In this document: positions 867 to 62,100 of the stretch, one piece after another | How the letters are laid out: each line of letters begins with the position of its first letter | Numbering within the stretch: position 1 is the first letter of the stretch | Translations under genes and position numbers: made by a program | Assembly: GCA_050230475.1 (NCBI GenBank) | Contig: JBFLGF010000031.1 | Coordinates: forward strand, 1-64,000 | Reading direction: 5' to 3' | Source: Ancylonema sp. | Taxonomy: Eukaryota | DNA: 64,000 bases | The notes under the pieces: model-generated | The model's database searches: none | The model's input: the letters and a program-made list of their open reading frames with translations, nothing else | What the model was told of the DNA's origin: nothing

Positions 867-2048
867 TACCAGGGACAAGAAAGGGGGGGACGAAGATGAC
901 TAGACAAAGAATGTATCAATGTCTATCGAGTCGGTTGTGTTTATAAAAAGGGTTGACAAGGGTTAACATGTCCGTCATCAACAAATGGTGCCTAAAAAAC
1001 AATAATTAATTAATTTGTGCCCAAAAAATATGCCCCAAAACCATGGTTGGCCCCGTTCCAATCTTTCGATTTCCGATTCGATTCCAATCCGAAGTCAAAC
1101 CCCGGCTAAATGCCGGCTAAACTCGACACAGATCCGGCTTGTCGGATCGGACATCGGGAATCGGAAATCCGATCAATTGGGTTAGAAAAAAACTTTTAGT
1201 GCACCAAATGTGTCGTCAAAAGATTTTACTCCTGGAAAATAAAAAAAAAAACGTTGGCGTTTAAGAAACGCTCAATTTTTTTCCCCCCATATATTTTATA
1301 TTTGGATGCCCCCATCCGATAAAAATAAATCGGTTCCGATCCGGATTGGAAGTAATCGGGGATCGAGACCCAACTATGCTCAAACGAGTTGAACAATGGT
1401 GAAGGTAGGTCAAAACTAGCAAAGATGTACCTCAAGGTCCGCAGGAAAGATACATTCTTCCTAGAGCACACGGATAAATTTTGGAAAAAACAAATGACTG
1501 ATCTTTCACTTCTTGCTGCACTGATAATGGCAGGTACCAAGCATAGTTGCATCGCAATCACTTTTGTCCGATCACGGTTTACATGAGATTGGGCCCGCGC
1601 ATGGGACCGTAAATGTTTAATTTCCGCTTGATTGGGGCCAACTAGGAGAGTTATGTGCCTATATTACACCTATTTTTTTCTTGTTATTTTTCTTTTTCTC
1701 TCTACAACATTACTATATCCCGCCACGATTTGTCCTACGATTTTTGTGTCGGGGTGGGGGATCCGGGGACTTGGGGTTCGGATTTCTTAGGGTGCAGTTA
1801 CTCACACGGGTGAATTTTGTTTCTTTTGTCCAATGCTCGGATTCCGATTGTACCCCGATTGGCTCCGGGCCCGATCGCGATTGGAGGGCGTCTCCAGATC
1901 TTTCAACCGGATCGGGGACAACTATTATACAGAGTGTGCCACCATGTTCAAGCCGGCTCGTAGTCAACATAGTTCCAATCTGGTTGTCTATGTGGGTGGT
2001 CGATGTGAAATGGTTTGTTGTCAAAAAATGTTCCGTTTGGTTTTCTTT

Positions 2049-2980
2049 TGTCATGCCTGTATGAATCGTCAGCTAGAAACCCCTCTATTTTAAGCAGAAT
2101 ATCAAAATAGCCGCACCGCTATGTTTTTCCGCCTTGTCACGACTCCGCCCCCGCTCATTTCAGTCCGAGCTTCGTCGGTGACCAGCGCCCTTTAACTAAA
2201 GTTTCGAGTAGTCAACCTTTGACTAGCTCCCTTTTGTATTTGAATTGATTAGACTACGTGTCGGACTTGTCATCAATAGCAATCGTGACCGTAGCTCTTT
2301 AGATCAACAGCTCGGAATCAACTAGAGATATATGCAGCCAATTATAGCGTGCGCGCCGAGTTGATTTATATATTTCTTGCCGCGTATCCCAGCGAGCGCG
2401 CGAGTAGATTATTCGAGTTTGACAATAAAGACTCTAAAGACTCTTGTACAACTTTCAATTCTTAGCTTTCGCTGAATTTGACGTTGAAGATATTTTCCTT
2501 GCACACCATTGTTTTCCTCGACACTCTGAATTCTTTGCCTTGCGCAATCTGTGATCTTTTGCTTTCGCAACATCGTGTGTATCGAGCGTTCGCTCATTTG
2601 TGATTAATTTGCATCAAGCTGTCGCTTTGCAATTTTTGAATTACCCTCGTTACCAAAGTTATCGATTGTCTGACCTGCTGCGCAGTCAAAAATCACCTGT
2701 TTGAATTACCGAGCGTTCGCTCATCTGTGCAATCCATTCGTACATCTATTTTGTTGCTATTGACAAGCTTTGCAGAACTGTATCATAATCGATTGCTTGC
2801 TGATCAAGAATCGACGCGCTGTAATCTTGTGTCGCTCTCGTTACTTTTGAGCCGTCAAGTAAGAGCAGCGTGTGATAGCTTGCTAGCAGTGAGTAGTACA
2901 GCGAATAAAGCTCGAAAATTGCCTCGTTTGTGTGATTGTTTACAATCACTGCCGCGATTCAAGCGAGCACTGTACTCTCA
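2049..2980 (+). repeat. Repeat A1 (5' LTR lacking the B segment)
   Basis: Starts TGTCATGCCTGTATG and ends TACTCTCA; roughly 90-95% identical by eye to 9338-10268. Confidence 0.92.
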
Positions 2981-2993
2981 AATTCAGCGAAAG
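2978..2993 (+). promoter_or_regulatory. Putative self-priming primer-binding site
   Basis: TCAAATTCAGCGAAAG is the exact reverse complement of LTR-internal 2466-2481 (CTTTCGCTGAATTTGA). No TGG-initiated tRNA PBS is present. Confidence 0.7.
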
Positions 2994-3969
2994 GGTCTCT
3001 GACCACCAATTACGTGACTTCGACGGCTTTCAGTTCAAGAAAGGTACGTGAAAAGTGCAGATTTTTTTTTCCCCTACCTCTTTGCGTTGGCATAAAATCA
3101 TATATGTGCATCCAGGAGTAGCTGGAATTGATTATTTGTACAATTTGCGTGGTTTATCTGTGAAATTGCTGTGAAATTTGCGTGCTGAATTATCATCGTG
3201 AAAGCTATTTCGTGAAATTGTGAAATTCCTAGCATCTCTGTGATCTGGATTCTTGCAATCTTTGCTTTGGCTACCGTTCGTTACAGGTTGTTACTAGATT
3301 TACCGCTTTGTAACTAAGAGAACCACGAATATACTTTATAGAATTAGTTCCCGAACCTGGATCACGCAGTACCCAGCCTGTCACGCCAGTAAGGGAGGGT
3401 CAATTTCTTGCAAGTTCACTTTGTTGTTCTGTGACTTTTTCAAACACGAGAAGAAAGATTAACTATACCCTGCTCAGAAAAAATTTACCTTGCGACCTTA
3501 CGGTCCTCTCAGACTTGATTCGAATTTACCTGACCGAGCTCAATTTATTCGACATCACAGTATTTACCATTCGTTTACAGACAGTCCTACCAAGATATTA
3601 TTGTTTCGTACCAATCACTCTAGTACGTCACTCTCAAATTCAGAATATAGACACCGTATGTAATTTACTGAACAGTACCGTACTCTCGATTGACTTTCAA
3701 ATACCGTGACTATTATACAGATTGACAGTATACAATCAAGTCTCTACCACTACAAGTTGCTTCCACCGACATTCTTTTGTTGTTGAACGCACTAAGAACT
3801 GCTCACCCGGAACAATTGCACGCCTGAGAAGTATCGACAGCCATTACTCAACCATATAAACACGTTTATTAAAATAAAAAAAATAAAAAAAACCGTACAC
3901 AATCATTATTATACAAGATTTATCACAATTTCATTTAAGTAACATATACACCGTGAATTATCAAAGTTT

Positions 3970-5661
3970 ATGCCGTGGAAACGTATTAACGGAAGACTAA
4001 CGAAAATTGCCAATCTGGAGGATATACAGCAAACGGGACTAGCACTAGACATCCCTCTCGGAACGTTTACTTTAATAAACTTTTTGTTTGACAACAGTGA
4101 TTCTGAAAAGGATGGTATCAGGTTAACCAGACAGTTGTCTCAACCTAATTACTGCAGAAGTTCATATGGAAAAACACACCGAGAATTACCAACAGAAAAA
4201 TCAACCCCATATAATACAGTTCCAGTACGAAGAAATCAAAACAGCGCACCACCGACTGTATATAATTCTCCTGGATTTCGACACAACAACTATCCATCCA
4301 AAAGATTATTTGGATCAGCACCTATTACTAGGGCAACTAGCCTATCCTCAGACATGAGTTCAGATAATCCTAAAAGTCCAGATTTGACTCCGAACAAAGA
4401 AGTACCTACACCAATCCAACTACCGATTCCACCATCAACTACTCAACCGTCGCAATCTCCGCCAACACCACCGCAAGCAGTACCAACTTCTCAAAGAAAG
4501 AGTGTAAATTGGGGAGATAATATAACATCGTTACCACCAATCACACCGTATCACGGAGCACTGGGCACTACTCAAGACGAATTTATTAACTCAGTACTAA
4601 GTCATCACGAAATCCTTAATCGGGAAAAACGGACCGGCTATGTAGAGATGGATTTAGTTCGAAACCTAGGGGCTTATTGTGAAGGAGAAGCTCAACGAGA
4701 ATGGCAAAGTTTTATGACAGACCACGAAGGAGACGCCAACACAAGAGATTTACGTGAAATGCGGCGTGATTACTCTATCGATGAATTGTATTTCAGATAC
4801 TACAGATTTCATGATGGTATGACTGAACCACAGCCACCGAGCCAACCAGAACCACATGAATTACAAGCATTCATCGATGCAATTAAAACAAGATTCCGTA
4901 CCTCGTCTGCAGAATATCTGATTAAACTGAACAATATGGTTTGTTCACCAACGGATACAGTATCATCAATTTACGCAAAATTTAACGATGCACCTTACGT
5001 GATTGAAGGATCTAATGCAATGACTTCCGAACAGCTTGCACTTCGTTTACTACAACTGATTCCGTTACCGATCCAAGATCATCTTAAGAAATGGTATTTT
5101 GACACCAACAATCAACGGTTCTTTGCAAATCCACGAGACGCACCATTAACAAGAAAAGAGAACATGACAGAAGCTAATGAAAGTGAATCGTACAGGGCGA
5201 AACAAGAAGCTGACATGAGAGATGCGGGTGGAACGAGAAATTCATCCAACGCTAACATAACGAAATCGAAAAATGTTTACCAAAAGACTTATACACAGAG
5301 TACTCCAACGTACAGACCTACAGATCGACAAAATATTAATGGTGAAAGACCGCCTCCAACATGTTACAACTGCAACCAAGTCGGCCACTACAAGAAAGAC
5401 TGCAATTTACCAATGAAATCAGCAGCACCTACCGGACCTACGCAACCTTACCGATCTTCGAATCAACAAGCTAGCGGTCAACAACCTCAAGGAAATTACA
5501 AAGGAGACTCTTATGGACAACAACGAATGAATCAAGTTCCCAAACCTCGCCAGTGCGGACCTGAATCCTACACGAAGGGAGCAACATGCACTAACTGTGG
5601 GAAGATGAACCACATAGCGCAACAATGTCAACGACCACGAAACGGCCAACACTTAACGTGA
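3970..5661 (+). CDS. gag: Gag-like protein with two CCHC zinc knuckles
   Basis: 563-aa open frame containing CYNCNQVGHYKKDC and CTNCGKMNHIAQQC. The true start may be the later ATG (MSSDNPK). Confidence 0.85.
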   Translation: MPWKRINGRLTKIANLEDIQQTGLALDIPLGTFTLINFLFDNSDSEKDGIRLTRQLSQPNYCRSSYGKTHRELPTEKSTPYNTVPVRRNQNSAPPTVYNSPGFRHNNYPSKRLFGSAPITRATSLSSDMSSDNPKSPDLTPNKEVPTPIQLPIPPSTTQPSQSPPTPPQAVPTSQRKSVNWGDNITSLPPITPYHGALGTTQDEFINSVLSHHEILNREKRTGYVEMDLVRNLGAYCEGEAQREWQSFMTDHEGDANTRDLREMRRDYSIDELYFRYYRFHDGMTEPQPPSQPEPHELQAFIDAIKTRFRTSSAEYLIKLNNMVCSPTDTVSSIYAKFNDAPYVIEGSNAMTSEQLALRLLQLIPLPIQDHLKKWYFDTNNQRFFANPRDAPLTRKENMTEANESESYRAKQEADMRDAGGTRNSSNANITKSKNVYQKTYTQSTPTYRPTDRQNINGERPPPTCYNCNQVGHYKKDCNLPMKSAAPTGPTQPYRSSNQQASGQQPQGNYKGDSYGQQRMNQVPKPRQCGPESYTKGATCTNCGKMNHIAQQCQRPRNGQHLT

Positions 5662-7104
5662 CCCGTCCCTCCAATTTCATTGGATCTGCCCGCAAGACCA
5701 GATGTGCAACGCATCACGTGGAAGGACCAGCAACAACCTTATCCTAGCCTCACCTTCATGGAGAAAGAACCTGAAAAAGAAGCTGATTCAACGAAGGGGT
5801 CCCTTGACGACGACATTGACGAGTTAACCTATGCGCAGTTCCTTAACGAGGAAATTAAGATCCTTAAAAAAGGATGGCAAGAAGCGGTTAAGGTAAACAT
5901 ACCAAAACAGAAAACACTTACCCCAAGAAGATCCCCAAGAGTTGCTCAATTTGAACTACGTCGACAAACTTCAAGCTTACCAGATTCCTCCATATCACTA
6001 CCTAGACCAACTTTAACATCACCACCACCTGAATGTGACACTCAGGCATCAGAGAAAGCCACAATTACCAATCACCCTGTCACACGCAATGATGTATACC
6101 CACCAGAACATGAGGACAGAGGACGTTTCGATGTAGAAGGACCAGACTATGGAAGAAGACGTGGATATAGCGTTAAAATGCCAGAAACATGGATCCCTGA
6201 ATTCTCTGATAACATCACACGAAGCACGGTTAACATGGATGAACCAACATTCACTGACCCACCACCACCATTACCCCCCCTTCCTCAGGCACATGTAGTT
6301 ACCGACCAACTCAACACGATGCAGAGCGAGCTCCAAAAACTCGTCATCGAACAAAGCAAGGCAATCATCTTGGCACACGACCTCGTCCGCAGGCTGGAGA
6401 ACCCTTCCCCTCAGCTGTCGGCGATCCTCAAGGCCACGAAGGACACCCCGATGGCGAACACCTACAAGCCTCCACACGCAAGAAAAAAAGGTGAGCTTAC
6501 CATGGATACTTATCAAATCACCACGATTGATAATAACACTGGAATTTGTCACATCAATGGAAAAATCCCAATGAAACCGGTCATTGATTCGGGTGCACAA
6601 AATACTATGATTGGTATTACTTACCGAAAGACCCTCAACATTACCGATGAAGATTTACGACCCGGTTCACAATACACTACGGCATCAGGCGACATTCGAA
6701 CAAGCATGGGCAACACACAGGAGAAATTCCCCATTATCCTAGGAGCTGGCACACCAAATCCGACGACGGTGTGGACAGAGCTACACCTTTCCCCATCCAA
6801 AGATGTTGACTTACTTCTAGACACTGTTTTCATTGCCACACTCGGAGGCTGCATTGAAACCCGAGAAAAGAAGTTCGTTTACCGAGCTGATTGGGCTCAC
6901 GAAGGACATTGCCCCACAAGCGTTTCCATTACCGTCCAAGGACCTCCCAAGGTAACCCCACAAATACTCATGGCAGACTTCGAGGTTAAAAATCGCACTA
7001 CAAATGACATGCACCGAAACAAAGTGTACGACAACAACATTCGACAACAACCGTTACCTACTAGTGTGTTGTCCCTGCCCACACCTCAGTTACCCAGCAT
7101 ATGA
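5662..7104 (+). CDS. Polyprotein segment with retropepsin-like aspartic protease, in frame with gag after a TGA
   Basis: ICHINGKIPMKPVIDSGAQNTMI (DSG active site) followed by DVDLLLDTVFI. Same reading frame as gag. Confidence 0.75.
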   Translation, partial: PVPPISLDLPARPDVQRITWKDQQQPYPSLTFMEKEPEKEADSTKGSLDDDIDELTYAQFLNEEIKILKKGWQEAVKVNIPKQKTLTPRRSPRVAQFELRRQTSSLPDSSISLPRPTLTSPPPECDTQASEKATITNHPVTRNDVYPPEHEDRGRFDVEGPDYGRRRGYSVKMPETWIPEFSDNITRSTVNMDEPTFTDPPPPLPPLPQAHVVTDQLNTMQSELQKLVIEQSKAIILAHDLVRRLENPSPQLSAILKATKDTPMANTYKPPHARKKGELTMDTYQITTIDNNTGICHINGKIPMKPVIDSGAQNTMIGITYRKTLNITDEDLRPGSQYTTASGDIRTSMGNTQEKFPIILGAGTPNPTTVWTELHLSPSKDVDLLLDTVFIATLGGCIETREKKFVYRADWAHEGHCPTSVSITVQGPPKVTPQILMADFEVKNRTTNDMHRNKVYDNNIRQQPLPTSVLSLPTPQLPSI

Positions 7105-7378
7105 AAATCAATGAGAAAAATTGCAACATTACACATATTTACACATCAAGACAAAGAATACAAATACCGTGCATGGATGGTTACACCGTGGACTCGCACA
7201 TTCTACAATTTTCTTCAAAAAGACTTTGACGCTGCATCTCTATATATTGCACGCAAGCATGACTACCACGCAAAAAAAATGGCGTTTGACAACCTTATGC
7301 TCAGTCAAGAAAGTGAACGACTTCTAAAAAAGACGATGCTTACCGCGAAAATAGAATCACCATGGAAACCATTTTGGC

Positions 7379-8420
7379 GTGGCATTTCGTAAGACGACTT
7401 CAAATGCATTACCTCACCGGTTCGACTCATTCAACCAATATGGACTTCATGTGTGGCTACCATTTGCAGGTATCGACCTCTCCGGACTCATCATGTTGCT
7501 CAAAGGCGGATTCCGTATCTCTACACTTACCACCCAAGAAGAAGACCCGGAAGCACGTATGTCTCAACGTCGCCAAGTGAAAAGACCTTCAAACACTCTT
7601 TCCTAATCAGTTACCTAACTCTGCAGTGCATGGCTTTGATACACGAAAACAAAACGCATTGGTGAACACGACGACTACCAACATCTCCAACATGATCATG
7701 ACCCATGGACCAATCGACTTCATCTGCGGCAACTGGCACACTGAGGTCATCCGTAATGAGACACCAATTAGCACAATCAAAGATCCTCGAGTGGCAGCCC
7801 TGTTCACATTACTAACACTCGTTCAACAACTTCAAAAGATGCAACCTTTCATTCCGACATACATGTTTTACAATCATTCACGACTAACTGATTATCCTAT
7901 GTGGTCAAGAGAACTAGTGCATGTGGCATCACAATTTCTTGGAAAAATGATAACAGTCAACGCTTTACAGCTTGGTTCTCACTTTTACCGACAAACCCAT
8001 ATCTAGCAAAATACCTTTCCAAATGGACATCTTCGAGCAGCTATTCCCGACTACGGATGGATTTCCAAAATCGAGCGGTTACTCAACCCAGGACACCAGG
8101 AACAAGAAAAAGGTGCCAACACGTATAAGTACGAAAGCAACTATTACCAGTCCCGTGATGAGAGGCAATTCATGCCACCAATCAATCCTTACCAAGACAA
8201 TTCTGACTATGTGTTGACATGGAGACAACATCTACAACAGTACACGTACGGCGAAGGGATGTTGAAGGACAACACCAACAACCACTGGGTGTCACCAACA
8301 GCTGGCGAGCGTGCAAGATTTTTACATTACAGCTTGGACGATGTATCCATTCCTGCACACCCGGATACCAATTACCTGAACAAACGTAACTGCCAACTCC
8401 TGAAGAATAATGGACAATAA
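7379..8420 (+). pseudogene. Cytosine-5 DNA methyltransferase-like domain, frameshifted, catalytic motifs substituted
   Basis: Motifs in canonical order: I VWLPFAGI; II EEDPEAR; IV GPIDFICGNWHTE (no PC); V DPRVAALF; VI YMFYNH (no ENV); VIII NALQLGSHFYRQTHI*QN; IX GEGMLKD...PTAGERARFLHY; X RNCQLLKN. Confidence 0.7.
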
Positions 8421-9180
8421 AATATGTGCTGGGTATGGAGGCTTACTTGGTGCGTTTCATCGACAATCCCCAAATCTGGGGGGGAGCATCGCTACAACAT
8501 CAACAATTACATCTACATCCAGCTCTGTTTCGGACTCGGAGTCTGAAACTTTTTAAACCAGTTCTGAAAACGATTACCCTTTCTCATTCCCAGTACAAGT
8601 GGACCACATGGAGGAAGACACCAATACAATTTCACCTGGTTTCGGCTCCACAATTTCTTCATCCACAAATGCCACTACCATCCACGACGACAATAACAAC
8701 AAGACGCTACCAGATTTACCTTACAACCTTCCGATTGACTTGAAAGATCCCCATCCCCAACACACTGTTCAAATGATACATTACCAAGATGACACTATAC
8801 TACGTTTATGTCCACCACAAGTTACCAAAACTTTCAGCTCTGAAAATACCATCAAAGAAATACCATCAGAGAAATACCATCAAACCCAATCAAGACAACG
8901 TGTGATGGAAAATACTTGTTCATCGAAGGCATTTATGGTTTTGCAAAGCACAAGTTACCTTTAACACGGGAATCTGAATCCAAAAAAAAATCCCATCCAT
9001 TTACTTCTGCTACAATGTCTGCACACCCTGATGCTGTGATGACTACACATCCAACAATATCGACAACTTGTCATTTTTCAGCTTCTGAGAGCAACCCTTG
9101 TGCTACATCATTACTGTGATCCTGATCACTTTACCCTTTTATGTTGATTACCCATATGTGAACGCATAGCTCTTCAATCT

Positions 9181-9192
9181 GGGGGGGGGGAG
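9181..9192 (+). promoter_or_regulatory. Polypurine tract
   Basis: GGGGGGGGGGAG immediately upstream of repeat B1. Confidence 0.7.
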
Positions 9193-10268
9193 TTACGATA
9201 TTCCAGCCTCCTATCTGCACCTCCACTACATCGACAAGACCCCTTTTAGTCGATACTTTGAGTGCGATTACCTCTTCATCGACTGATTCCATCATCGATG
9301 ACCCATTTACCCTACCGATCTCATCCGGCACGTCACCTGTCATGCCTGTATGAATCGTCAACTAGAAACCCCTCTGTTTTTATCAGAATATTAAAATAGC
9401 CGCACCGCTATGTTTTTCCGCCTTGTCACGACTCCGCCCCCGCTCATTTTATTCCGAGCTTCGTTGGTGACCGGCGCCCCTGTTATTAAGTTTCGAGTAG
9501 TCAAACTTTGTCTAGCTCCCCTTTGTATTTGAATTGATTAGACTACGTGTCAGACTTGTCATCAATAACAATCGTGACCGTAGCTCTTTAGATCAACCGC
9601 TCAGAATCAATAGAGATGTCTGCAGCCAATTATAGCGTGCGCGCCGAGTTGATTTCCTTGCCACGCGTATCCCAGCGAGCGCGCGAGTAGAATATTCGAG
9701 TTTGACAATAAAGACTCTTGTAAAACTTTACAATTTTCAAATCTCAGCTTTCGCTAAATTTGACGTTGAAGAGATTTTACTTGCACACCATTGTTTTCCT
9801 CGACATCTGAATTCTTTGCCTTGCGCAATCTGTGATCTTTTGCTTTCGCAACATCGTGTGTATCGAGCGTTCGCTCGATTGTGATTACTTTGCATCAAGC
9901 CGTCGCTTTGTAATTTTTTAATTACCCTCGTTACCCAAGTTATCGATTGTCTGACCTGCTGCGCAGGCAGAAATCACCTGTTTGACTTACCGAGCGTTCG
10001 CTCATCCGTGCAATCCATTCGCACATTTATTTTGCTGCTATTGACAAGCTTTGCAGAACTGTATCATAATCGATTGCTTGCTGATTAAGAATCGACGCAT
10101 CTGTTGCTGTAATCTTGTGTCGCTCTCGTTACTTTTGAGCCGTCAAGTAAGAGCAGCGTGTGATAGCTTGCTAGCAGTGAGTAGTACAGCGAATAAAGCT
10201 CGAAAATTGCCTCGTTTGTGTGATTGTTTACAATCACTTCCGCGATTCAAGCGAGCACCGTACTATCA
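9193..10268 (+). repeat. Complete 3' LTR = B1 (9193-9336) + A2 (9338-10268)
   Basis: B1 matches 10270-10413 and A2 matches 2049-2980. Follows the PPT and ends in CA. Confidence 0.88.
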
Positions 10269-10269
10269 T

Positions 10270-10413
10270 TTACGATATTCCAGCCTCCTATCAGCACCTC
10301 CACTACATCGACAAGACCCCGTTCAGTCGATACTTGGAATGCGATTACCCCTTCATCGACTGATTCCATCATCGATTACCCATTTACCCTACCGATCTCA
10401 TCTGGCACGTCAC
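10270..10413 (+). repeat. Repeat B2 (terminal copy of the LTR 5' segment)
   Basis: TTACGATATTCCAGCCTCC...GGCACGTCAC, a ~144-bp direct repeat of 9193-9336. Confidence 0.9.
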
Positions 10414-31467: not shown

Positions 31468-33488
31468 CTACTGAGCTGCTTGGAAATCTCCAAAATCGCC
31501 GTCATCGGCTGCCACCTCTTCCTTTGCTGATCCAGCTTCATCAGCCGCATCTGAAGCAGATTTGTTGTCCCCTTGTTGCAGATTTGGAACTCCAACCTCA
31601 TCCTCTCCTGAAAAAGATCCAGATCCAGATCCAGACCCAAAACTTGGTCTCAGATCTGACTCGCTTGTGATCCGTAACCTTGCAAAGGCCCCAATGCTGC
31701 CGGATGGCGGGGGAGGGAGGATAGGCAATCCCTTATCTATGGAAGTGGTTCTGAGTGGGTTGACACTAGAGACTGGGGGTGTGATGAGGATAGGCGATGC
31801 TGACGGCTGTGTGAAGAAACTGTCACTCAAACCTGGTTTGGGCCTTGAACTCTGCACAAATGAAGACAATGAAATATAAGAAATATAATCCATTCATCTG
31901 ATTGGCACAAGCTCTTCCTGTTGTAACACCACTTCAGATTCCATCGGAATCTTCAAGCATGCCAACAATAAATGTCATTTTTCTAACCTACCCACCAGAT
32001 GAGCTCCACCCACCAGAGAGTACTCAAGGGAGTCCCACAGTTTCTTCCCACACTTCAAGGCCCAGAATTTCAGAGAGCCGTCCTCTTCTGGACTGCTTTG
32101 CAACTTAAAAGAGATGCCTGATGTGTCACCCCTGCTGTTCCATTTCGTGAAGAAGCATGCCTTATAATGCCAGTGTGCATGCGTACTTATGAATCACATG
32201 CATTGCCGTAGTCGACTTAGTATCCTGGATGCAGAACTCCACCTGGATGACCTCCAGTCTATATGCCTTGTAATCCTATATTAGTGTGATGTGTGAAGAT
32301 AAGTTTACATTAGTTCAGCCGTATGGCGACCTTTCTGAACCTCTATCTAACTCATCAGCTGCCAATTGTGCGCTTGTCTAAAGATCAAGAATTGGAGGTC
32401 GCATACAATATATGGGATTCAACATGTGGCACTGCTACCTTCACTTGTTCTTGTGGTCACTGCAGACAGTCTTACCCGTTTGATATCGAGGTGAATCGTT
32501 TCACCTTCCTTCAAGCTGTAGTCCACTTGAGGCTTGGACTGATACTCCTGTTCCATCTCTGCAGCCTCCTTCTTCTTATTCATATATTTCACGTGGTCAT
32601 ATAGGGCTGCCTGAAAGTCATATGCCTCGGGCCTTTCTCTAAATCCTAAGCCAACGAAGGCATGTCTTCCTGAATTACCCAGAGTATCTTCTATCCTGAG
32701 AACAAAGAATCTGCTACTGTCTATGACAGCCTCCACAGGTAAAGGCTGGTCAGCTTTGATGGCGGACTGAGCATACAGCTCTCCACTTTTTGTATCCTCT
32801 AATCTTATAAGACATTCGTGTCCCTTCGATACAACTTTGAGGGCACCTTCCCACGCCCATTTGTTGATATCCCACTCATCTGCCCTGCAGTGTAACAGAC
32901 TCCAGCGGAGTGGCATCAGTGGTTCGCTGCAGATTCAAGATTCGAGTAACTGCACCTGCTAGAGGGTCATGGCGTGGAGAGACAGTAGCTTCAGAGTACT
33001 TTCTCAATGGCATTTCAATCGAAATGAAGACACTCGATGACGAGATAGGAGCTGGTAAAATTACCTGTAAGAAGCTGCACTCTTGCGTGGCGGAATCTGC
33101 GACACAAAACTCCGACAAATATTGAAAATTTTAGAAAAAAATCTAAAAACAGGACTTCTTTCTGCGAGCATCAGTCAAGTTCAGAAAGAGTTTGAACCTC
33201 GTGTCATGCAGTAGACTTGTTCCCCACCTGACTAATGTGTCCCCTGCTTTATTAGTAGACCACATCGAATACAGTGCGTTATGTTCAAGCTCGGCTGACT
33301 AAATTCTGTGCAGTGAGTTGTGTACCGTGGGGCAAGAATTGTATGAACAATGTTGACAAAAGCTGCTGCCTCACCTTGTAAACGTAGCATTCCGCAACTT
33401 GAAATAGTACCAACTCTGCATAAGACTCCTCTGCCTCCAATTGATCATCTACAGCATTCGGCACAGGTTTTTTTATTGCTGCTGCCAT
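31468..33488 (-). CDS. Adaptin ear-binding coat-associated protein (NECAP-like)
   Basis: Exons 33488-33375, 33096-33065 (IPPRKSAASYR), 32884-32476 and ~31851-31468. Motifs RADEWDINKWAWEG, DSSRFFVLRI, AFVGLGFRER, DYSLKEGETI, C-terminal DFGDFQAA. Confidence 0.92.
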
Positions 33489-44682: not shown

Positions 44683-47600
44683 TGTGAGTGCTTTCTTCTG
44701 CCATCGATGCAAGAATAAAGCACAATTCCCTCAGACAACTCTTGAATCGACAGATCATGTCATTACAAACGTTGACACCACGTTGACACAACAACAGTGC
44801 AAGTTTGAAGTAGAAAAGTCTGATTACAGAATTCAGCATACAAGCAGACCTAGTACAGTCGATTGTTGCCTGGTCAAAGAATGAAACTACTTCGTCAACT
44901 GCCAATCATATCCAAGCATTCTGCCACATCAACTAGTTCTTATCGACACTTGTGCCAGATGGCCAAGCGTAATCATTGAAACAAGGACATCGGCCTGCAG
45001 CCGGCCTGCAGCCTGCATTTGCTGAAAACGACAAAACTAAATCTAAATTCCCCGTATTGCTAAAATCGATATAACGACAAAAGTTCACAGCCCCTAAAAA
45101 CTAACCCCCCCTCCCTGGGTACTTTTGTATTCCCCCTCCAAAAACGATAACCAAACGATATCGATTTTACAAACACAAGTCGACAAAAAACTCACTAAAT
45201 AAACTGATCAATGAACCATCTACAATTATTTTGCATACACCAACCCCCCAGATCACAATTCTTCTTCAACGCCTTGAGAGACAGTGGTTTTGTCAACATA
45301 TCAGCACCTAGTCTTCATTCTTGTAGACTGATCTTTTTCTTGGACACCCTCTCTCGAATGGAATGATACTTGATCTCGATGTGTTTGGAGCGCTTGTGAA
45401 ATTCAGGATTCTCAGCAAGATTCAAAGAACTCTCATTGTCTCCCAGCAATAGCACACCCCCCCCACCAATACCCCACTCCTTCTGCATCTGGCTCAAATA
45501 AATGGCCTCATGTCCAGCAGCACTCAATGCCAAATACTTACTTTCACAGCTTGAGTGTGTGACTGTTTCCAGGAGACCATTTTTCCAGCTCACAGCAGCT
45601 CCTCCAGTAAGAAAGACGTAGCGAGTTCTCCCCTTCCTAGTGTCGACGTCGTCACCATGACTAGCATCTGAGTAACCGATGACTGGCAAATCACCTTTTT
45701 TCTTATACATCAGCCCCAAATTGACAGTTTCCTTGAGATATCGCAAAACTCTCTTTACCCCCTCCCAATGCTTGTCCCCTGGCTGCTGACTGTATCGACA
45801 CAAGTTAACAACAGCTGCCAGATCAGGTCTTGTTCCAGAAGTGAGATACAACAAACTGCCCATTACAGACTTGTAGCCCACACCCTCTATTCCAGCAGAT
45901 TCAGAAGCAGATTCACAGTTTGCAGAAAATTTTACACCCAGCTCAAGAGGGGTAGCATCATCAGGATACCATTCTGGAACAACTTCTAGATGATCTTCGT
46001 CTTCATCGCCTCCACTAGAATTGCTGACAAGTTCTGGAAGATTTGCACTCTGAGGAATAGGGGATCTCGGTAGCTGTGGCAATAGATTTCCCACAGCATC
46101 AGGGATCTCTTCATCGACGGAATTTGGATCGTTATAGGCAGGTTGCCCACCTCTAGAAATGCCCCCTCCGAGACCAACACTACCCCCTCCTGCTCCTTGA
46201 TCAGCTGCATCCAGATCTGGCCGTGACATTTTTGTTTCTGCAACTGGCTCATGCACTCTTGCCTTCTTGCCAATTTTCTGCCCCCTCCACCAGCTTTGCT
46301 TGACAGATTCATCGAAGTCTGCATGACCAGTGCCAACGTTGTGTGCTTTGTTCGTTGCAGGATCCCAGACTCGGTAGCAAGGACTGTCGGGATTCCATCC
46401 AACTAACACACCAAGCCAAGCCAGCGCACTCATTTTCCCAGCCCGATCTTTTTTCAGACGAGGAGCTGCATCATCTTTGGTGCGAAGTATTTCCACCTAG
46501 GATTTTCGGTTGTATTCATCGACGAGCACCATGTTGTACACTCCTTCCCCTATTGATGCTGGATTGAACGGCCGTGCCAAGTCCACCGACACTCTTCCCA
46601 GGCAGACTTGTTCTCCTTCACCAACTTCTCGTCGAGGATGAGGTTTGTCGTGTGCCTTCCCCAACTTGCACCCTTCACCGTTTTGCAGAACTCCTGAGAT
46701 GCCTCCTTCCTGTCCTCGTACAAGATGTTGTCGTGCCACATTTTTGAGCACTCTCTCATTTGCATGCCCAAGTCTTGTGTGGAGGAGGTTGATTTCGACA
46801 GCAGCTACAACAGCTTCCCCTTCCGTAAGTTGCTGATGTCGAACCGGTGTGCAGATTAGAGTTTTTCGACCTCTCGATGTTTCTTGCAGAGTGCAGACTT
46901 GTTGTCCAGATTTGTTGTAAACTGGAATGATGCCACCAGCTTTTCCACTGCAAGTGTAAGACCACCCTGCTTCTCTGGCTTTCTGACCGCTGAACAAATT
47001 AATGCGCATCCCAGGAATACATATCTTGAGTGTTACTCCTCCACACTCTCCCTCAGTATTCAACTCAATTGTTCCCCACTGCTTCACTCGCACACTTCCG
47101 ACCAGATGATGAATGATGATGACCTCGTGTATGTCTTCGAGGATTTTGAAAAAAGATTTTTCTGTCCACAGGAATGGTGACTGGAACCATCGTCGAAAAG
47201 GAAATCTTTCTCTGCATCATCATCATCTGCAACATTTCCTTTCACAGATTTCAGCGAGGACAGCTTCTCCATGACCACAGCTCTTCTCCTCATCGATTTC
47301 GCCAACAAAAGCTGTTTTTCTCCCAGTGCGTACCCCCTTTCTCTGCATTCGTGGAGCTTCGTTTTTCTTGTCGAAACATGTGAATTTCACATGACCAATG
47401 GCTCCACAATATCTGCATTCTTCGTTTTTCTTGGAGCAGTTTCTGCTGTAGTGACCTGTCTCTCCACAAGTATAGAGGAATGTCCTCCACTTGATCCACT
47501 GCCTCCACCTCTGCCTCCACGACCACCTATGATTCCACGATTATCTGCTGAATACCCCCTGAATGTACCCCTGCCTCCACGATTGTCGATACCACCACCT

Positions 47601-48716
47601 CTGCCTTGGCTTGAAAATTTTTGTTGCGCTGACCACTTAGCATAGTTTGCCTCTACAACTAGTGCCTCAGCATCTTTGATCCTTTTCTTTCTCTTGTCGT
47701 CCAACTCATCTATTCCCATCTGCCCCCAGATCCAGCTGATCTCAGGTGCCTCTTTCTGTCTATAGTAAAGCTTCTTCAACATGCCGTATGTTGTTCTTGA
47801 CATGCCAACAAAACAATGCCATCACCTTATCTTCTGCGCTGACTGGAAATTTTTGATGTACACACTCTCTGATGATCGACAGAGAAGTATTCTTGATTTC
47901 TCTGACTGGCATCTTTTCAGATCTTGAAAGAGTTCGGCTTTTCTTTTGCAATCTGTCGAAGTTCTGGAGACACCTTGTCATACTCCTCTGTCAGATAGTC
48001 CCACCGCATCGCCTTTGGATCTCGTTCAAATTGTTCAAGTGATGTAGCGATGTCGTCACTAACAAATTGCATGAGTAGCATGACTGCCTTCTTTGATCTT
48101 TTAAGGAAGCTTTTGACATCAAGTGTATACTGCTCCATTTTTGCTTCATTTGTTGGCCAGTGTTCATCATCATATCTGGCTGTAACCTCAGTTGGAATAG
48201 TCTTTGTTCCTGCAGATCTCAAGACACTCAGCATCATCAAGAGTAGCTGAGGCCTTAGATCTCCATGTTTGAAAGGTAACTTTATCTCCATCCAGAATGC
48301 AGTACTGTGCTCTGATACCACTGTGAGTGCTTTCTTCTGCCATCGATGCAAGAATAAAGCACAATTCTCTTGAATCGACAGATCACGTCATCACAAACGT
48401 TGACACAACAAAAGTGCAAGTTTGAAGTAGAAAAGTCTGATTACAGAATTCAGCATACAAGTTCAGACCTAGTACAGTCAATTGTTGCCTGATCAAAGAA
48501 TCTACTGGTATCGAAACTACTTCGTCAACTGCCAATCATATCTAAGCATTCTGCCACATCAACTAGTTCTTATCGACTCTTGTGCCAGATGGCCAAGTAA
48601 TCATTGAAACAAGGACATCGGCCTGCAGCCGGCATTTGCTGAATAACGACAAAACTAAAGCTAAATTCCCGGTATTGTTAAAAACGACAAAAGTTCACAG
48701 CCCCTAAAAACTAACA
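44683..48716 (-). mobile_element. Ty1/copia LTR retrotransposon, internally deleted
   Basis: LTRs at 44683-45106 and 48322-48716; 5-bp TSD CTTTC; Met-tRNA PBS TGGTATCAGAGC (48320-48309); PPT next to 45107. Domain order gag-PR-INT-RT-RNase H. Confidence 0.96.
45315..48300 (-). pseudogene. Disrupted copia gag-pol
   Basis: Zinc knuckles (YTCGETGHYSRNC, CRYCGAIGHVKFTC), protease-like FDDGSSHH, LHTRLGH...CKLGK, VDL..P, YRVWDP, GSLLYL..TRPDL, GYSDASH, GDNESS, HKRSKHIEIKYH. Contains stops and frameshifts. Confidence 0.9.
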
Positions 48717-49233: not shown

Positions 49234-52200
49234 CTACCGCCCCCCACCCCCTCCCCGCCCACGCCCTCTGCCCCGTCCTCTCCCTCTCGCCCCCCGTCCA
49301 GCTGCAGCAGCAGCCGCTCTCCCTGCAACCCCACACACAACCAAGAAAAAAAAAAACCTCAAAATTTGTGGTTATATTACTTCAAAACATATATAACAAG
49401 AAGCGCAAATGTACAGACGGAGGTGGTACGGGATAATTTGTGGCCATCCATGTTGGTTCCATCCAAGTTACCCGTAGTGGCCATACATAATGACCCGGGT
49501 TTTTAAAAACGAATTAATTCAGCTTAAAAATCACCACTTGACCCAACCCGCGCACCCAATAGAAAATTTCCCAAAATCTTGAAAGATGTTTATTATATGG
49601 TGACCCACATTGAAGAATGACCCATTTTATCTGAAAATTGAATTATTTAATTTGACCCGACCCACCCTTGTCATAATTATTGAAGGGTCGTTATGTGTGG
49701 CCAGTACGGTATTGCACCTATTGGTTCACACCGCCAGATCAAAAGGAGTATGTAGGCAGTACAGACCGGCGATTCCCATCCCAGGTGCCGTGGTTTGCGG
49801 TGAGGTGGACACATAGGAGTTAGTGAACTACATAGAAATAAAATCTGAGACCAGATGATACGATGGTAGCATGTGCAGTACTTCTTCGGCAATCAGGCTA
49901 CTCAAAATGAGCCCGGGATGAGCCCAAATGAGCCCAGTACTAGTGTATAGAGCCCTTGCGGCCATGAGAACCTAGGTCCCGATATTTGATTTCTGACCTC
50001 AGCTTCCGATTTTTTTTTTTTTGTTTTGTTTTGTTTTATTCTTGCAACTGGCTTATGTGAGTAGGATTAAGGGAAGGAACACTGCGTCTGCAACGCTTAG
50101 GAGGACAGTGGTCTAGGACGGTTCAGAGGACTGTGGTTCTTTTACACCCGTCACAGACTACCCATGGCAAACAGGAGTTGAGTCGCACTACATTGAATCG
50201 ATTCTCATCCTCATCCCCCAGCTTTAGAGGATTTGATCCGATAAACAGATTTGATCCGTTAAACTGATTTGATCCGATAAACTGATTTGATCCGTTAAAC
50301 TGATTTGATCCGGTAACTTTTAGAGCCACGCAGGTGCAGTGACTATCACGTTCACGCGGAAATGTTTTGGAGAAAATTTCGTGGCACTTTCCTACCGGAG
50401 TAGGTCACCAGGGAACTGACTCGTCAGTTTCAGTCACAGTTTCAGTTTCAGTCATAAAACCCGGATATAAGAAACCTAAAAAATGCTGTGGGAAAATGGT
50501 TCTCATGTAAAAATCACAGTTGAAGTGTAAATAAGTGAACAAAAAAAAGGGAAACAACTTCTCATACAGAAGACTTCTTATAACGAAGTTTATTATATTG
50601 GGGTTTTACTGTCTTCCGCATGTGACTGTGACGGTATTTGACAACTGGGTAACCAGAGACCAGAAAAAGCAGATATAAGAAACCATAAAAATCCCGAGAT
50701 GAAGTTTCTTATGTCGAGTGTAACTTGTGCGCGATATACTTTCGTAGAAACCCCCTAGGTGAAAAAGAAACAAAAGGTTTGTGGAAGTGAATATATTCTA
50801 CGACGAGATTTCTTCCACCGAGAGATTTCCAGTTCTCCAACCCTCAGCCTGTATTCACGCGGACAGTTTGTAGTGTACACACCTGCACTCTCTTTCTTAC
50901 AACGAAGTCCAGTGAATCGGGGTTTTACTGCCCGTACCTACCTCGGGTTCTTATAACGAGGTTTCTTATATCAGGGTTTATATTGTCCATACCTGCACTC
51001 GCTTTCTTCGGTTTCCTCGGCGCGTCTTCCACCAACAACGTGTCCAGATTCAGACTGTCCGGCAAGATGTAGTATCGGATGTTGTTGCCGCGGATGCTCA
51101 GGTGGTCCAGCGTCACCGGGTTCTTATTCCTCAGAGTCAGTTTCACCGTCTTCAGGTGGGTGTTCATACTGATGTCCACACCTGGAAGGGGAAGAGAGCC
51201 ACGGGACACAAAGGAGAGGGAAGAATTTAGAGAACATATTTTATTTCTGATGAGCGCTTGAGGATCACAATCGTACACCCCTGAGGGAGGTGTGCTTATA
51301 AGGCACTTGGAGTGCTGGGATGGTAGGGGTTGATTTTGTGGGTGGCTGTTGAGGCTGAGGAGATGGGATGCGGGAGAGGGAAGAATGAACCGAGAGTAGA
51401 GGACTGGGGACAGCAGACTGTGGGGCAGGAGGGGGGGTTCTACTTTGCAGAACACTGAAGAGGAAGATGGTGCGCATGAGAGTGTTTAGAATGGCAGTCA
51501 GGCCACTGACCAGCGAGTAGCGTTACTGAGAACCCAGAGCCCTCATAACCCCCTCCTCAATTCTTTCTTTGGTGCGAATGTGATCACTTTGCCACAACCT
51601 TGGGTTTTGGGTTCACATTTGTCATCAACAGCCACCGCCATGTTCGCTTTAACAGTCATATATTTGAACGAGTCTTTTTAGCAGTTTAAAAATAAGCACA
51701 CAGGATGCATTACTGTCCTTTATGAGGGGATGAACGAATCGGTCCGAGAGCAGCCCCTGTGGTGGGCCAATATAGAGAGACAGTCTAGCTTCAAAGACAC
51801 ATTCGTCATGGAACTCGACACAGGTGATAACTTCGTGAAGTAACAGCATGGCAGCTGGCTTTGGTTGGATAATAAATAGGTGAAATACGTCACAGGCTTC
51901 GCACTATATGATGCAAATCAGTTCGTGAAGTCATGGATTGAGCACAATTTCATGTGTAATTAAAAGCGTATGCATTGTTGCGGCGAAGGGGCGAACCTGT
52001 TATTGTGCCGTGAACAACCGTGCCATTCTTTAGCTCGATAGACACCGTCTCGTTGTTCAGCTTCATCAAAAACCTGAAGTACGGGGGGAAGGAGCAAGGA
52101 AAGGAATTTGTTACCCCTCGACCTCTACTAAATGACAACACTGCCCCTCCGATACTTTGAGCAGACACTACAAAATGCATGCGGTTCTTCTGTCCACCCT

Positions 52201-59139: not shown

Positions 59140-62100
59140 TCAGCTCTCACCCTCTCTCCACTTAACCTCCGGCGAGCGTGCAAAGAGCAGTGCACTCCCC
59201 GTCACCCCGCGGAGAACCATGAACCGCTCATCCAAGAAACTCACGCACGCGATGCACGACACGTCCACCATCTCCTTGGGCACTTGAATCATCATCTCCC
59301 TCAAAATATCGACGGCCACACCCTTGTGCTCCTCGTTGCTCAGCTTGAGCGACACATCCGCTCTCCCCACCGACACTCCCACCACTCTCATTTCGGTTAA
59401 CCGATTCTCGCCCCCGCCCCCATCCATCCGCCCTTCCTCCCTGGCCTTATGAGAAGTTGATGGTGGGGCACTGGAACTTTCACTCCCCTCCCCTTCCCCA
59501 TACATCGTCATGCTTGGACTCCACTCTAAGTTACTACACACCACCTCGAATCGCGCTCTGCTCCCGATTTTGGTGAGGGGCCAATCCGCATCTTTTGGCA
59601 TTACGAGGAAGGGAATGTCCACTCTCAGAGGAATGGGAGAAATAAAAGGAGAAGATGTAGGAGGAGAAGTAGTAGAAGAAAAAGCAGAAGAAGAAGAAGG
59701 AGACAAAGAAGAAGAAGAAGACGAAGAAGAAGAAGACGACAAAGAAGAAGAAGAAGAAAATGAAGAGTTCCCCCCATTTTCTTCTCCTTCTTCTCCTTCT
59801 TCTCCTTCTTCTTCTTTGTTCACCCGCACTGTAATCGTTGCACACCCAATGAGCACAGCCGGCTTCCCCTGCCTCCACGTCCTCCCAATGTGTCTCCCAG
59901 TGGCATACACCAACCTCCACCGTCCGTCCCCCAACCCCTCCACCGTCCGCACCGTGACGCCGCCCCCCCCCCGCTCCATCTGTCCAATTAGACCCCGCAG
60001 ACGGAGGCGCTGGGGGGAGAGGTAGATGTACTCCTCCACGATGCGAACCGCTGCGGACCCCACCGCCCACGAGGGGCACATGACGCGTGGCAGATCCGTA
60101 CGTCGCCAGCGGGGCCCGCATGTGAAGGGGTGGCGGAGGGCTTCTTGGCAACTGCACACATGCACACGAGGTGTGGGATACCCCACCTTGCCTTTCGTAT
60201 ATATGGTATGGTATGGTATGATATGGTATGGTATGGTATGGTATGGTATGGTATGGTATGGTATGGTAGGGTGTGGTATGGTATGGTATGGTATGGTGTC
60301 CTCTCTGCATTGGGCCCTTTTGGCAGTACTCACCCTCTTTGTGGGGGCTGGTTTGGTCCTACATGTAAGGTGTGCCTTTGGAGGGGGGGGGGATGATTAT
60401 ACAGGCTTATATATATTGCCGTTTCGGAGGGGTTGCTGAAAATATTACATCAGGGGGGGAACGATGGAATGCGTGGCCGGTAGTGTTACCCTCCCCTGTC
60501 GTCACCTGATTCGCTGCGAGACATCGGTTTGAAGGAGGGCAGCCAACAGATGCCACCCCGCCCCGCCGTCCCTATCAAGAATCTGAACAGTCACAGAGAC
60601 AAGATCCGCAGAGCATCAATAACCGGTTACCGGTAACCGGTAACCGGTATCCTCCACCCGATTACGGTTACCCGTATACCTGTAGAGTGAGCCCTCCCTG
60701 GGGGCACAACCGGCCCATGATCGGCTTCAGATACTCCCTCAGCCCAGCTGGGGGGTGGCCCTCGTGTAGATAGGCCTTAAGGGCCGGGAAGATGACAGGT
60801 GGCAGCACCATACGCGCCAACAGCACGCCCACACTCCTGCTCAGCGCCCCCCACCCACCTATCAGACAAGTGTCCGACACCCGTCAGGTACCCATGAGGA
60901 TGACTAAGTCCAGCAAGAAAAGGAAGGGGGCGGGTGGGGGGGGTGGCGGGGGTGTGGGGGGTGGGGCCCACTTGATGTCGTGGCCAATCATGCGTTCCCT
61001 CATGTCGACTGTACGGAATCGCACGGCCTGACCGAGGATGGGCGCTTTCACGTGGCGGTCCGCCGCGCTGACGTGGACGTTTTGGAGGCGGAGATCGAGG
61101 TGGGCCATCCCCCGGCGGTGGACCTGGATGAGCCCAATGAGGACGTCGCGGAGGATGAGGCGGAGTAGGCGGCGCTGGCGGTCTGCCATTGGTCCGCCCG
61201 TGTGAGGGTCGCCCACACGCTTGGGGGCCTCATGGGAGAGGTCCAGGCGGGATTCGAGCTGGGGGACCCAATCAGGGCGGAGGAGCCAGAAGAGGAGGGA
61301 GAAATTCCCGTAGTACTGGAAGCAGCAAGGGTACGGAAAATAGAGGGAGTGAGAGATTTTCCGTACGATTCCGTACGATTCTGTACTAGTGGAGGCGGGG
61401 AGGGGGTGCTCACCCCCTGGACGAGGGTGAGGGGGGAGTCGGGGGTGGGGGCGGGGGGGATGAAGCCGTGAAGGTGGGCGCCGTAGGGGCTGCGCTGCTG
61501 CAACCAAGGGGTGGCCTGCAGAGCGCGCCGGCCGCGGCGCTGGGCGCCGACGCCGCGCAATCGGCGGAGGACCACGCGGCGGCCGCGGAGGGGGCTGGTG
61601 GGAGATGGGGGGGAGGGTGGATTTCGGGGGCGGTGGATAGCGGGTACCTATGGGAATCCGTACGGGACCCTGGCCAATCCGTACGGTACCTGGCATTGTT
61701 GCGAACCACTCCTTCGAAGACCAACTCGCCGCTCTGTAACCACCCCGGAGTGTATTTGGAATGTGTTAACTATACGGGTGGGTGGGGAATGTGACAGGAT
61801 GTGAGAAGAAATGGAAGAAAGGCGACGGCTCTTTCTGGTCGATGTCGCTGTCGAAGCGACGATATTTTATGAGAACATTGCTGAGATAACTAGGGATCTG
61901 GACGTCGCAGACAGGGGGCTCACCTTACCATGTAATCCCACGCTGACATGTGGCAAAATGTGGAAATCCGACTCTTGAAATCTCAGAAATGGTTGACAGG
62001 ATCCAGGGCGTTTTGCTGCTCCAGCACAGTGCGTTCGTTCCATTCCGACCCCTGTCCCCTCCGACTGGGAGTGCACATAAGTCGACCGCTTCCGAACTCT

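Follow-up and report, generated by a model that had tools for sequence, protein, structure and literature searches.

A probable self-primer in a split-repeat Gypsy-DNMT derivative from Ancylonema sp.

The window analyzed here, 64,000 nucleotides of Ancylonema sp. DNA (positions 1 to 64,000 of contig JBFLGF010000031.1, assembly GCA_050230475.1), carries at 2049-10412 a retrotransposon copy which, judging from its own sequence and those of its relatives, very probably primes reverse transcription in the manner of Tf1, with the 5' end of its own RNA and no tRNA. The transcript is inferred to start at 2464-2466. The reading that we favor, and to which we assign a probability of roughly 0.6 as a whole, is that an exact 16-nt complementary pair represents the self-primer and its binding site, that the resulting cDNA is joined end to end, and that the joined product is reopened at an internal att site.

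Layout and coding content of the element

The element, all features of which lie on the forward strand, follows the order B1-leader-gag-protease piece-broken region-PPT-A1-CC-B2-T-A2, or, in short, B-internal-PPT-A-B-A. What the sequence-only reading had called an LTR is a real repeat, but a split one: B alone stands at the 5' end, A and B together follow the polypurine tract (PPT), and another A is placed at the very end. Repeat B1 (2049-2980), which starts with TGTCA, ends with TCA and would comprise the 3' part of U3 followed by R-U5, matches B2 (9338-10268) in 871 of 916 aligned columns, and A1 (9193-9335), the 5' part of U3, is identical to A2 (10270-10412), the 3' end of the element, in 135 of 143 positions, both copies ending with CGTCA. 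The PPT, G10AG, occupies 9181-9192. An upstream G-run (8473-8486) has the same AATCTGGGGGGG context, and two G-runs before the att site described below are found both in the window (8473-8486 and 9176-9192) and in the relatives L009 and L013 (in L009 at about 5532 and 5710); of these three, only the window has an evident priming G-run. The 4 bp preceding B1, CTTT (2045-2048), are a weak candidate for the left target-site duplication, with a 3/4 match to CTTA on the right side in this one copy, 4-6 bp being expected with a DDE integrase.

The coding part begins with a gag carrying two CCHC zinc knuckles (3970-5658; Pfam zf-CCHC, E 6e-10; tblastn to the gag of P0052, E 1e-13), separated by a stop from a second frame piece (5662-7101) with an aspartyl protease domain at about 6547-6714 (Pfam gag-asp_proteas, E 1e-5; supported also by the atlas and by 53 homologues). 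Both gag and protease match P0052, which has the order gag-PR-DNMT. Several broken pieces further downstream (7412-8357) preserve a decayed C5 cytosine methyltransferase, detected by tblastn (P0057, E 7e-7; P0058, E 2e-5) and by a profile from 11 loci, in which the remnant scored best among the 1410 frame pieces of the window (E 1.7e-7). The remnant had no match in Pfam or PDB, nor with P0052, and the catalytic Cys motif G[WF]xC, present in 11/11 profile loci, is not kept in it. Since Pfam, tblastn and profile searches of its pieces found no RT, RNase H or integrase, the element is classified as a non-autonomous derivative of Gypsy-DNMT elements (Ty3/gypsy); being also broken, the copy is regarded as a relic for which a helper was needed. 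Tyrosine recombinases had no match in the window pieces or in the relatives (13 ORFs). In P0052, P0057 and P0058, the methyltransferase follows the protease in some elements and is flanked by RNase H and integrase in others, so that the domain either changed position or was acquired on two occasions; P0052, like the window element, stops after the methyltransferase.

The B-internal-A-B-A layout is a family trait and not an accident of one copy. Contigs of the same family were collected from Logan (four runs, representing at most three samples and two studies), and joints from B to A are present in 4/4 runs. In one run (X1), 36 contigs enter diverse unrelated sequence before 2049, which places the 5' end of the element at this position. 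Contig depth over B and A is far above that of the internal part; to read solo B/A units into this is only a guess, depth not being copy number.

Elsewhere in the window, a broken Ty1/copia-type fragment with gag, pre-integrase and SH3-like matches lies at 45315-48387 on the reverse strand, and two long inverted repeats, 34231-35144/42595-43498 (about 900 nt, 84-100%) and 39698-39897/40355-40554 (200 nt, 97%), are probably DNA transposons, the one lying within the other. Pieces of host genes at 32422-32934, 50928-51485 and 60887-61765, all on the reverse strand, match DUF1681, LSM and, weakly, a kinase; the DUF1681 piece is one which we take to be NECAP-like.

A complementary pair at the repeat end and its counterparts in relatives

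The 16 nucleotides at 2466-2481 (CTTTCGCTGAATTTGA) are the exact reverse complement of 2978-2993, with a mismatch at either flank, and the duplex spans 528 nt. The sequence-only reading had described this pair, had noted that its 3' arm consists of the last 3 nt of the repeat (B1 ends at 2980) and 13 nt of the leader, and had found no TGG-type primer-binding site after the repeat; all three statements held, TGG, the site for a tRNA 3' end, being absent from the 50 nt downstream of 2980. When the complement was required to start no more than 5 nt from the repeat end, 16 nt were reached in 0/5000 dinucleotide shuffles of the repeat and at least 12 nt in 12/5000; unanchored shuffles across 2049-3969 reached 16 nt in 0/500. 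Folds predicted from four trial start points gave the 16-pair helix a probability of 0.85-1.0. In the available text of Neumann et al., self-priming is recognized by a stretch of at least 10 nt in the 5' repeat that is perfectly complementary to the bases beside its 3' end, a length exceeded here by the 16 nt of the pair. We regard 2466-2481 as the candidate self-primer, located at the inferred RNA 5' end, and 2978-2993, straddling the end of B1, as its putative binding site. A/T-rich words 5' of the primer arm (2424-2440), with AATAAA at -42 and TAAA at -31, form a candidate TATA region weaker than that of the relatives described below. The primer arm as copied in B2 differs by a single change, at 9748. 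No Rfam match was obtained in 2000-4000, and no tRNA genes were found in the window. A second copy of ACTCTCAAATTCAG, which comprises the end of U5 and part of the binding site, is located in the leader at 3630-3643 and could form 10 base pairs with the primer arm; more TCAAATTCAG-like words are found around 3628-3742 in family contigs.

Within the family, the primer arm is nearly invariant. Of its positions, 2474 alone varies at a level of at least 2% (241, 96, 16 and 6 contigs in the four runs), which agrees with conservation of the pairing but supplies no compensated change. A subfamily leaving B at 2965 (loose ends, few contigs) hinted at another binding-site variant; the primer variant predicted from it was not seen at 2% or above among unitigs, which break at variants, so that this is no proof of its absence.

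More distant comparisons were provided by a methyltransferase alignment, which led to 25 metagenome loci and, with one more, to a set of 26 (L001-L026, 202 kb). Their domain order is mostly RT-RH-DNMT-IN-PHD, that of P0057 being gag-PR-DNMT-RT-RH-IN; they are distant from the window element, differ from it in domain order and, as collapsed contigs, are unable to show a split layout. An exact 23-nt repeat word had no match in the metagenome collection, the protease region and gag returned nothing in word-based protein searches, and no relative was found among viral contigs. In five loci (L002, L009, L011, L012 and L013), non-coding DNA following the att motif or preceding gag can be read; the remaining 21 either have no such DNA or are degraded. 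The pair is present in 4 of these 5 loci, corresponding to 3 of 4 families. L009 and L012, which belong to one family, share a 15-nt perfect pair (6401-6415/6828-6842, span 442 nt; 0/500 shuffles reach 15), and L013 has another of the same length (8122-8136/8612-8626, span 505 nt; 1/500 shuffles reach 15). In L011, the pair measures 12 nt (9/1000 shuffles) and is preceded, about 30 nt upstream, by TACTTTA. The exception is L002, which has the att motif and no exact pair longer than 10 nt, a length equaled in 395/1000 shuffles. Across all 26 loci, exact pairs of at least 14 nt at a spacing of 300-800 nt are confined to L009, L012, L013 and L019, those in L019 being mostly microsatellite.

The pol proteins of L009 and L013 are 81% identical and most of B is unalignable, except for the att region, the TATA-like word and the primer. 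Three primer positions differ between the two, and 3/3 are compensated in the opposite arm. In both loci, the two arms begin at a T|G step and TATTTA lies at exactly -31, with one further such word in each region. The compensatory changes which the sequence-only reading had proposed to look for were thus found between these relatives; none was seen within the window's own family in the contigs of four runs, and L002 is a miss. Overall, the compensated 15-nt pairs and the TATA-like box at -31 support the earlier proposal of an RNA 5' end that is paired to the binding site and primes from it; once this is accepted, the further proposal that the break between B and A lies inside U3 follows. As the binding site is wholly different between families and is matched in each by a cis partner of its own, priming by a tRNA appears unlikely.

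The relatives carry some additional domains. An ORF located 5' of the Gypsy-DNMT pol in L008 (3-3878) matches the Rtt106-like histone chaperone middle domain of Pfam (E 7e-15), possibly a captured chromatin domain, and a G-patch domain (E 4e-6) and a weak Tudor-like match were found in one pol each (L003, 6118-11835, and L007, 398-6496, respectively). The full Gypsy-DNMT pol of L026 comes from a contig that was assigned to a bacterial MAG, in all likelihood through eukaryotic contamination.

Joints, the internal att site and competing explanations

The joints in family contigs are of two kinds. Those from B to A come in several forms, in which, among the joints listed (15 of 178), B breaks off at 2978-2981 and the sequence resumes at 9190-9195, at times with additional letters, whereas the joint from A to B is, among those listed, one fixed junction. 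The positions of the former coincide with the cDNA ends expected from primer and PPT; subsequent mutation and the aligner could also account for their raggedness. In the window, the B-to-A joint lies at 10266-10272 and may represent an end-to-end cDNA junction.

At the junction of A and B, inside U3, GGCACGTCA at the end of A and TGTCATGCC at the start of B stand back to back across a 2-bp spacer (CA-NN-TG). In the window, this candidate internal att site, GGCACGTCA-CC-TGTCATGCC, occupies 9327-9346, presents two CA ends back to back and is identical in 16 of 18 positions to the junction motif of L009. The pattern CG[AT]CA-NN-TGTC, which was chosen after the window and L009 had been seen, occurs on the forward strand of 6/26 loci versus 1.25 expected, 5 times just after pol (L002, L007, L009, L012 and L013) and once in coding DNA; it was not found in more than 1 kb after pol in L001 and L014. 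L026 ends within the motif and L010 ends 128 nt after a G-run, which is suggestive of graph forks and carries little weight, k being unknown for L010. Together, the CA-NN-TG motif and the ragged B-to-A joints suggest, at about even odds, that end-joined cDNA is opened at the internal site.

The route that we propose would run as follows. Transcription would start at about 2464-2466 and the RNA 5' end would pair with 2978-2993; a helper RNase H would cut near base 12-13, leaving a primer of about 12-13 nt within a duplex that extends 3 bp past the cut, and minus-strand DNA would begin at about 2980. We consider these first steps, up to the beginning of minus-strand DNA, highly probable. Plus-strand priming at the PPT, by standard LTR chemistry, would then yield a linear A-B-internal-A-B cDNA, the ends of which are not integrase ends. 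We slightly favor a subsequent joining of the two ends, from which the ragged B|A joint would result. In the last step, for which the odds appear balanced, a helper DDE integrase would make a cut staggered by 2 nt at the CA-NN-TG of the A|B junction, producing both processed ends at once, and insert B-internal-A-B-A. Cutting behind each CA of the A|B site upstream would yield normal 3'-CA ends, and no other opening would preserve R at either end of the RNA transcribed next; from a circle carrying two att sites, however, B-A-B-internal-A would be expected too. The integrases of L012 and L013 (rve) have their D, D and E residues intact.

Self-priming could also operate without a circle, the extra A being acquired through head-to-tail joining of two linear cDNAs, a template jump of RT or a read-through transcript from B2 into A2. 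Any end-to-end joint would produce an identical B|A junction, and in retroviruses, according to the accessible text, the circle-junction precursor model was rejected and linear DNA is the proven precursor (PMC11054761). In the standard scheme, however, a primer at the end of B cannot copy RNA located 3' of B2, so that A2 requires some joint, and intramolecular joining is the simplest one. We consider this explanation unlikely, although it is the strongest competitor of the circular route.

The compensated changes demonstrate pairing and not priming, and the pair could be a structural long-range helix (of U5 type, or serving packaging or translation control), the real primer being a tRNA half or another host RNA; half-tRNA primers are known, from the descriptions available, in plant copia lineages. 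Such a helix would nevertheless have to account for a 3' arm that coincides exactly with the end of the repeat, the point at which the cDNA joints depart from B, and for a perfect cis partner of each arm 30-31 nt after a TATA-like word; the complete divergence of the arm between families is, moreover, what a conserved tRNA would forbid. We judge this explanation improbable.

Equally improbable, in our view, is a route of the PAT/Ngaro type, in which a helper tyrosine recombinase inserts the circle at the A|B junction without an integrase. It would agree with the repeat order, which is the A1-B1-A2-B2 of PAT, Ngaro and VIPER, with the near-palindromic junction and with the unconvincing target-site duplication. 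Against it, all homologues found are Gypsy elements with protease and rve integrase and no recombinase match, and the TG...CA ends, the 2-bp spacer and the PPT are present. Finally, a chance complement combined with a rearrangement of this single copy is a very remote prospect: six chance-like 14-nt inverted pairs exist in the window at similar spacing, but the shuffles, the recurrence of the pair in relatives and the commonness of the joints in the family all speak against it.

Comparison with known elements and implications

Self-priming as proposed here has counterparts. In Tf1/Tf2, Tj1, the Tf1/sushi group and the plant element Tcn1, as far as they are described in the sources available, the RNA 5' end complements a site beside the 5' repeat and a tRNA site is lacking, as in the window element (PMC7175516, PMC4600332, PMC6317226). 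The Tf1 primer consists of 11 nt freed by RNase H, and Tf1 has ordinary LTRs, in contrast to the 16-nt duplex, 528-nt span and split repeats of the window element (PMC7175516). The parallel drawn in the sequence-only reading with Tf1 and chromoviruses stands for the mechanism, whereas none of the features compared places the element in their clade: Tcn1 is described with a chromodomain and 5-bp duplications, whereas the window's relatives have PHD and DNMT domains and no chromodomain match (13 ORFs, P0057 and P0058), and the two full LTRs of Tf1 and Tcn1 are replaced by split repeats. As to the expectation that self-priming would be atypical for plant lineages, it is not rare in plants, being predicted for 12% of elements, but the lineages described there, in the text available, are Tcn1 and TAR and not the Gypsy-DNMT clade. 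For TAR, a plant Ty1/copia lineage including Houba and Osr-1, self-priming is predicted in 89% of 203 elements; TAR belongs to another superfamily than the window element and has ordinary LTRs (PMC6317226).

With respect to repeat structure, the closest published case is KnitGypsy-Dnmt3 of Klebsormidium nitens, in which DIRS-type repeats are combined with Gypsy domains (de Mendoza et al. 2018, PMC5890265). Compared by description only, it resembles the window element's group in its Gypsy domains, its split repeats of DIRS type and a polyprotein that includes a Dnmt3-like methyltransferase (PMC5890265). In the window element itself, a decayed methyltransferase is detectable and split direct repeats are present, while Gypsy RT, RNase H and integrase are absent; KnitGypsy-Dnmt3 is, as described, complete, whereas the window copy is devoid of these enzymes and its methyltransferase is dead (PMC5890265). 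The accessible text on KnitGypsy-Dnmt3 gives no primer, att site or mechanism (PMC5890265). PAT, Ngaro and VIPER have the same repeat order as the window element (A1-ORFs-B1-A2-B2) and form solo A2-B2 units, such as SIRE of VIPER, but encode a recombinase according to the same descriptions, in place of the protease, DDE integrase and PPT of the window's relatives (PMC7192593, PMC6681497). Gypsy-7a_cRei of Chlamydomonas, again compared by description only, is a Gypsy element with PHD and integrase, for which no DNMT is listed in the available text, and 8 bp present at the end of its right LTR are missing from the left one (PMC9940879); it may be a case of a short A. We found no printed account of self-priming or of an internal att site in Gypsy-DNMT elements in the literature outside subscription journals, theses and bioRxiv supplements.

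If the self-priming proposed here is correct, it would extend to a Gypsy clade without a chromodomain, beyond the two plant lineages with predictions. Primer site and PPT would fix the cDNA ends, and the integrated ends of the element would lie elsewhere. A tentative generalization, which we hold at slightly less than even odds, is that a Ty3/gypsy clade has uncoupled the ends on which integrase acts from those made in reverse transcription, through self-priming, a two-repeat circle and a retroviral-type integrase opening a preformed CA-NN-TG in U3. LTR finders that look for twin TG...CA LTRs and a tRNA site would overlook such families or draw their boundaries wrongly. The unexplained combination of DIRS repeats with a Gypsy body in KnitGypsy-Dnmt3 would become testable in terms of an obligatory end-joined intermediate and an integrase cutting an internal double-ended site. 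If true, the uncoupling of the two kinds of ends would exemplify in nature the circle-junction model of integration, which was put forward for retroviruses and later dropped, and would provide a mechanical account of split direct repeats, which may reach PAT and Ngaro elements as well.
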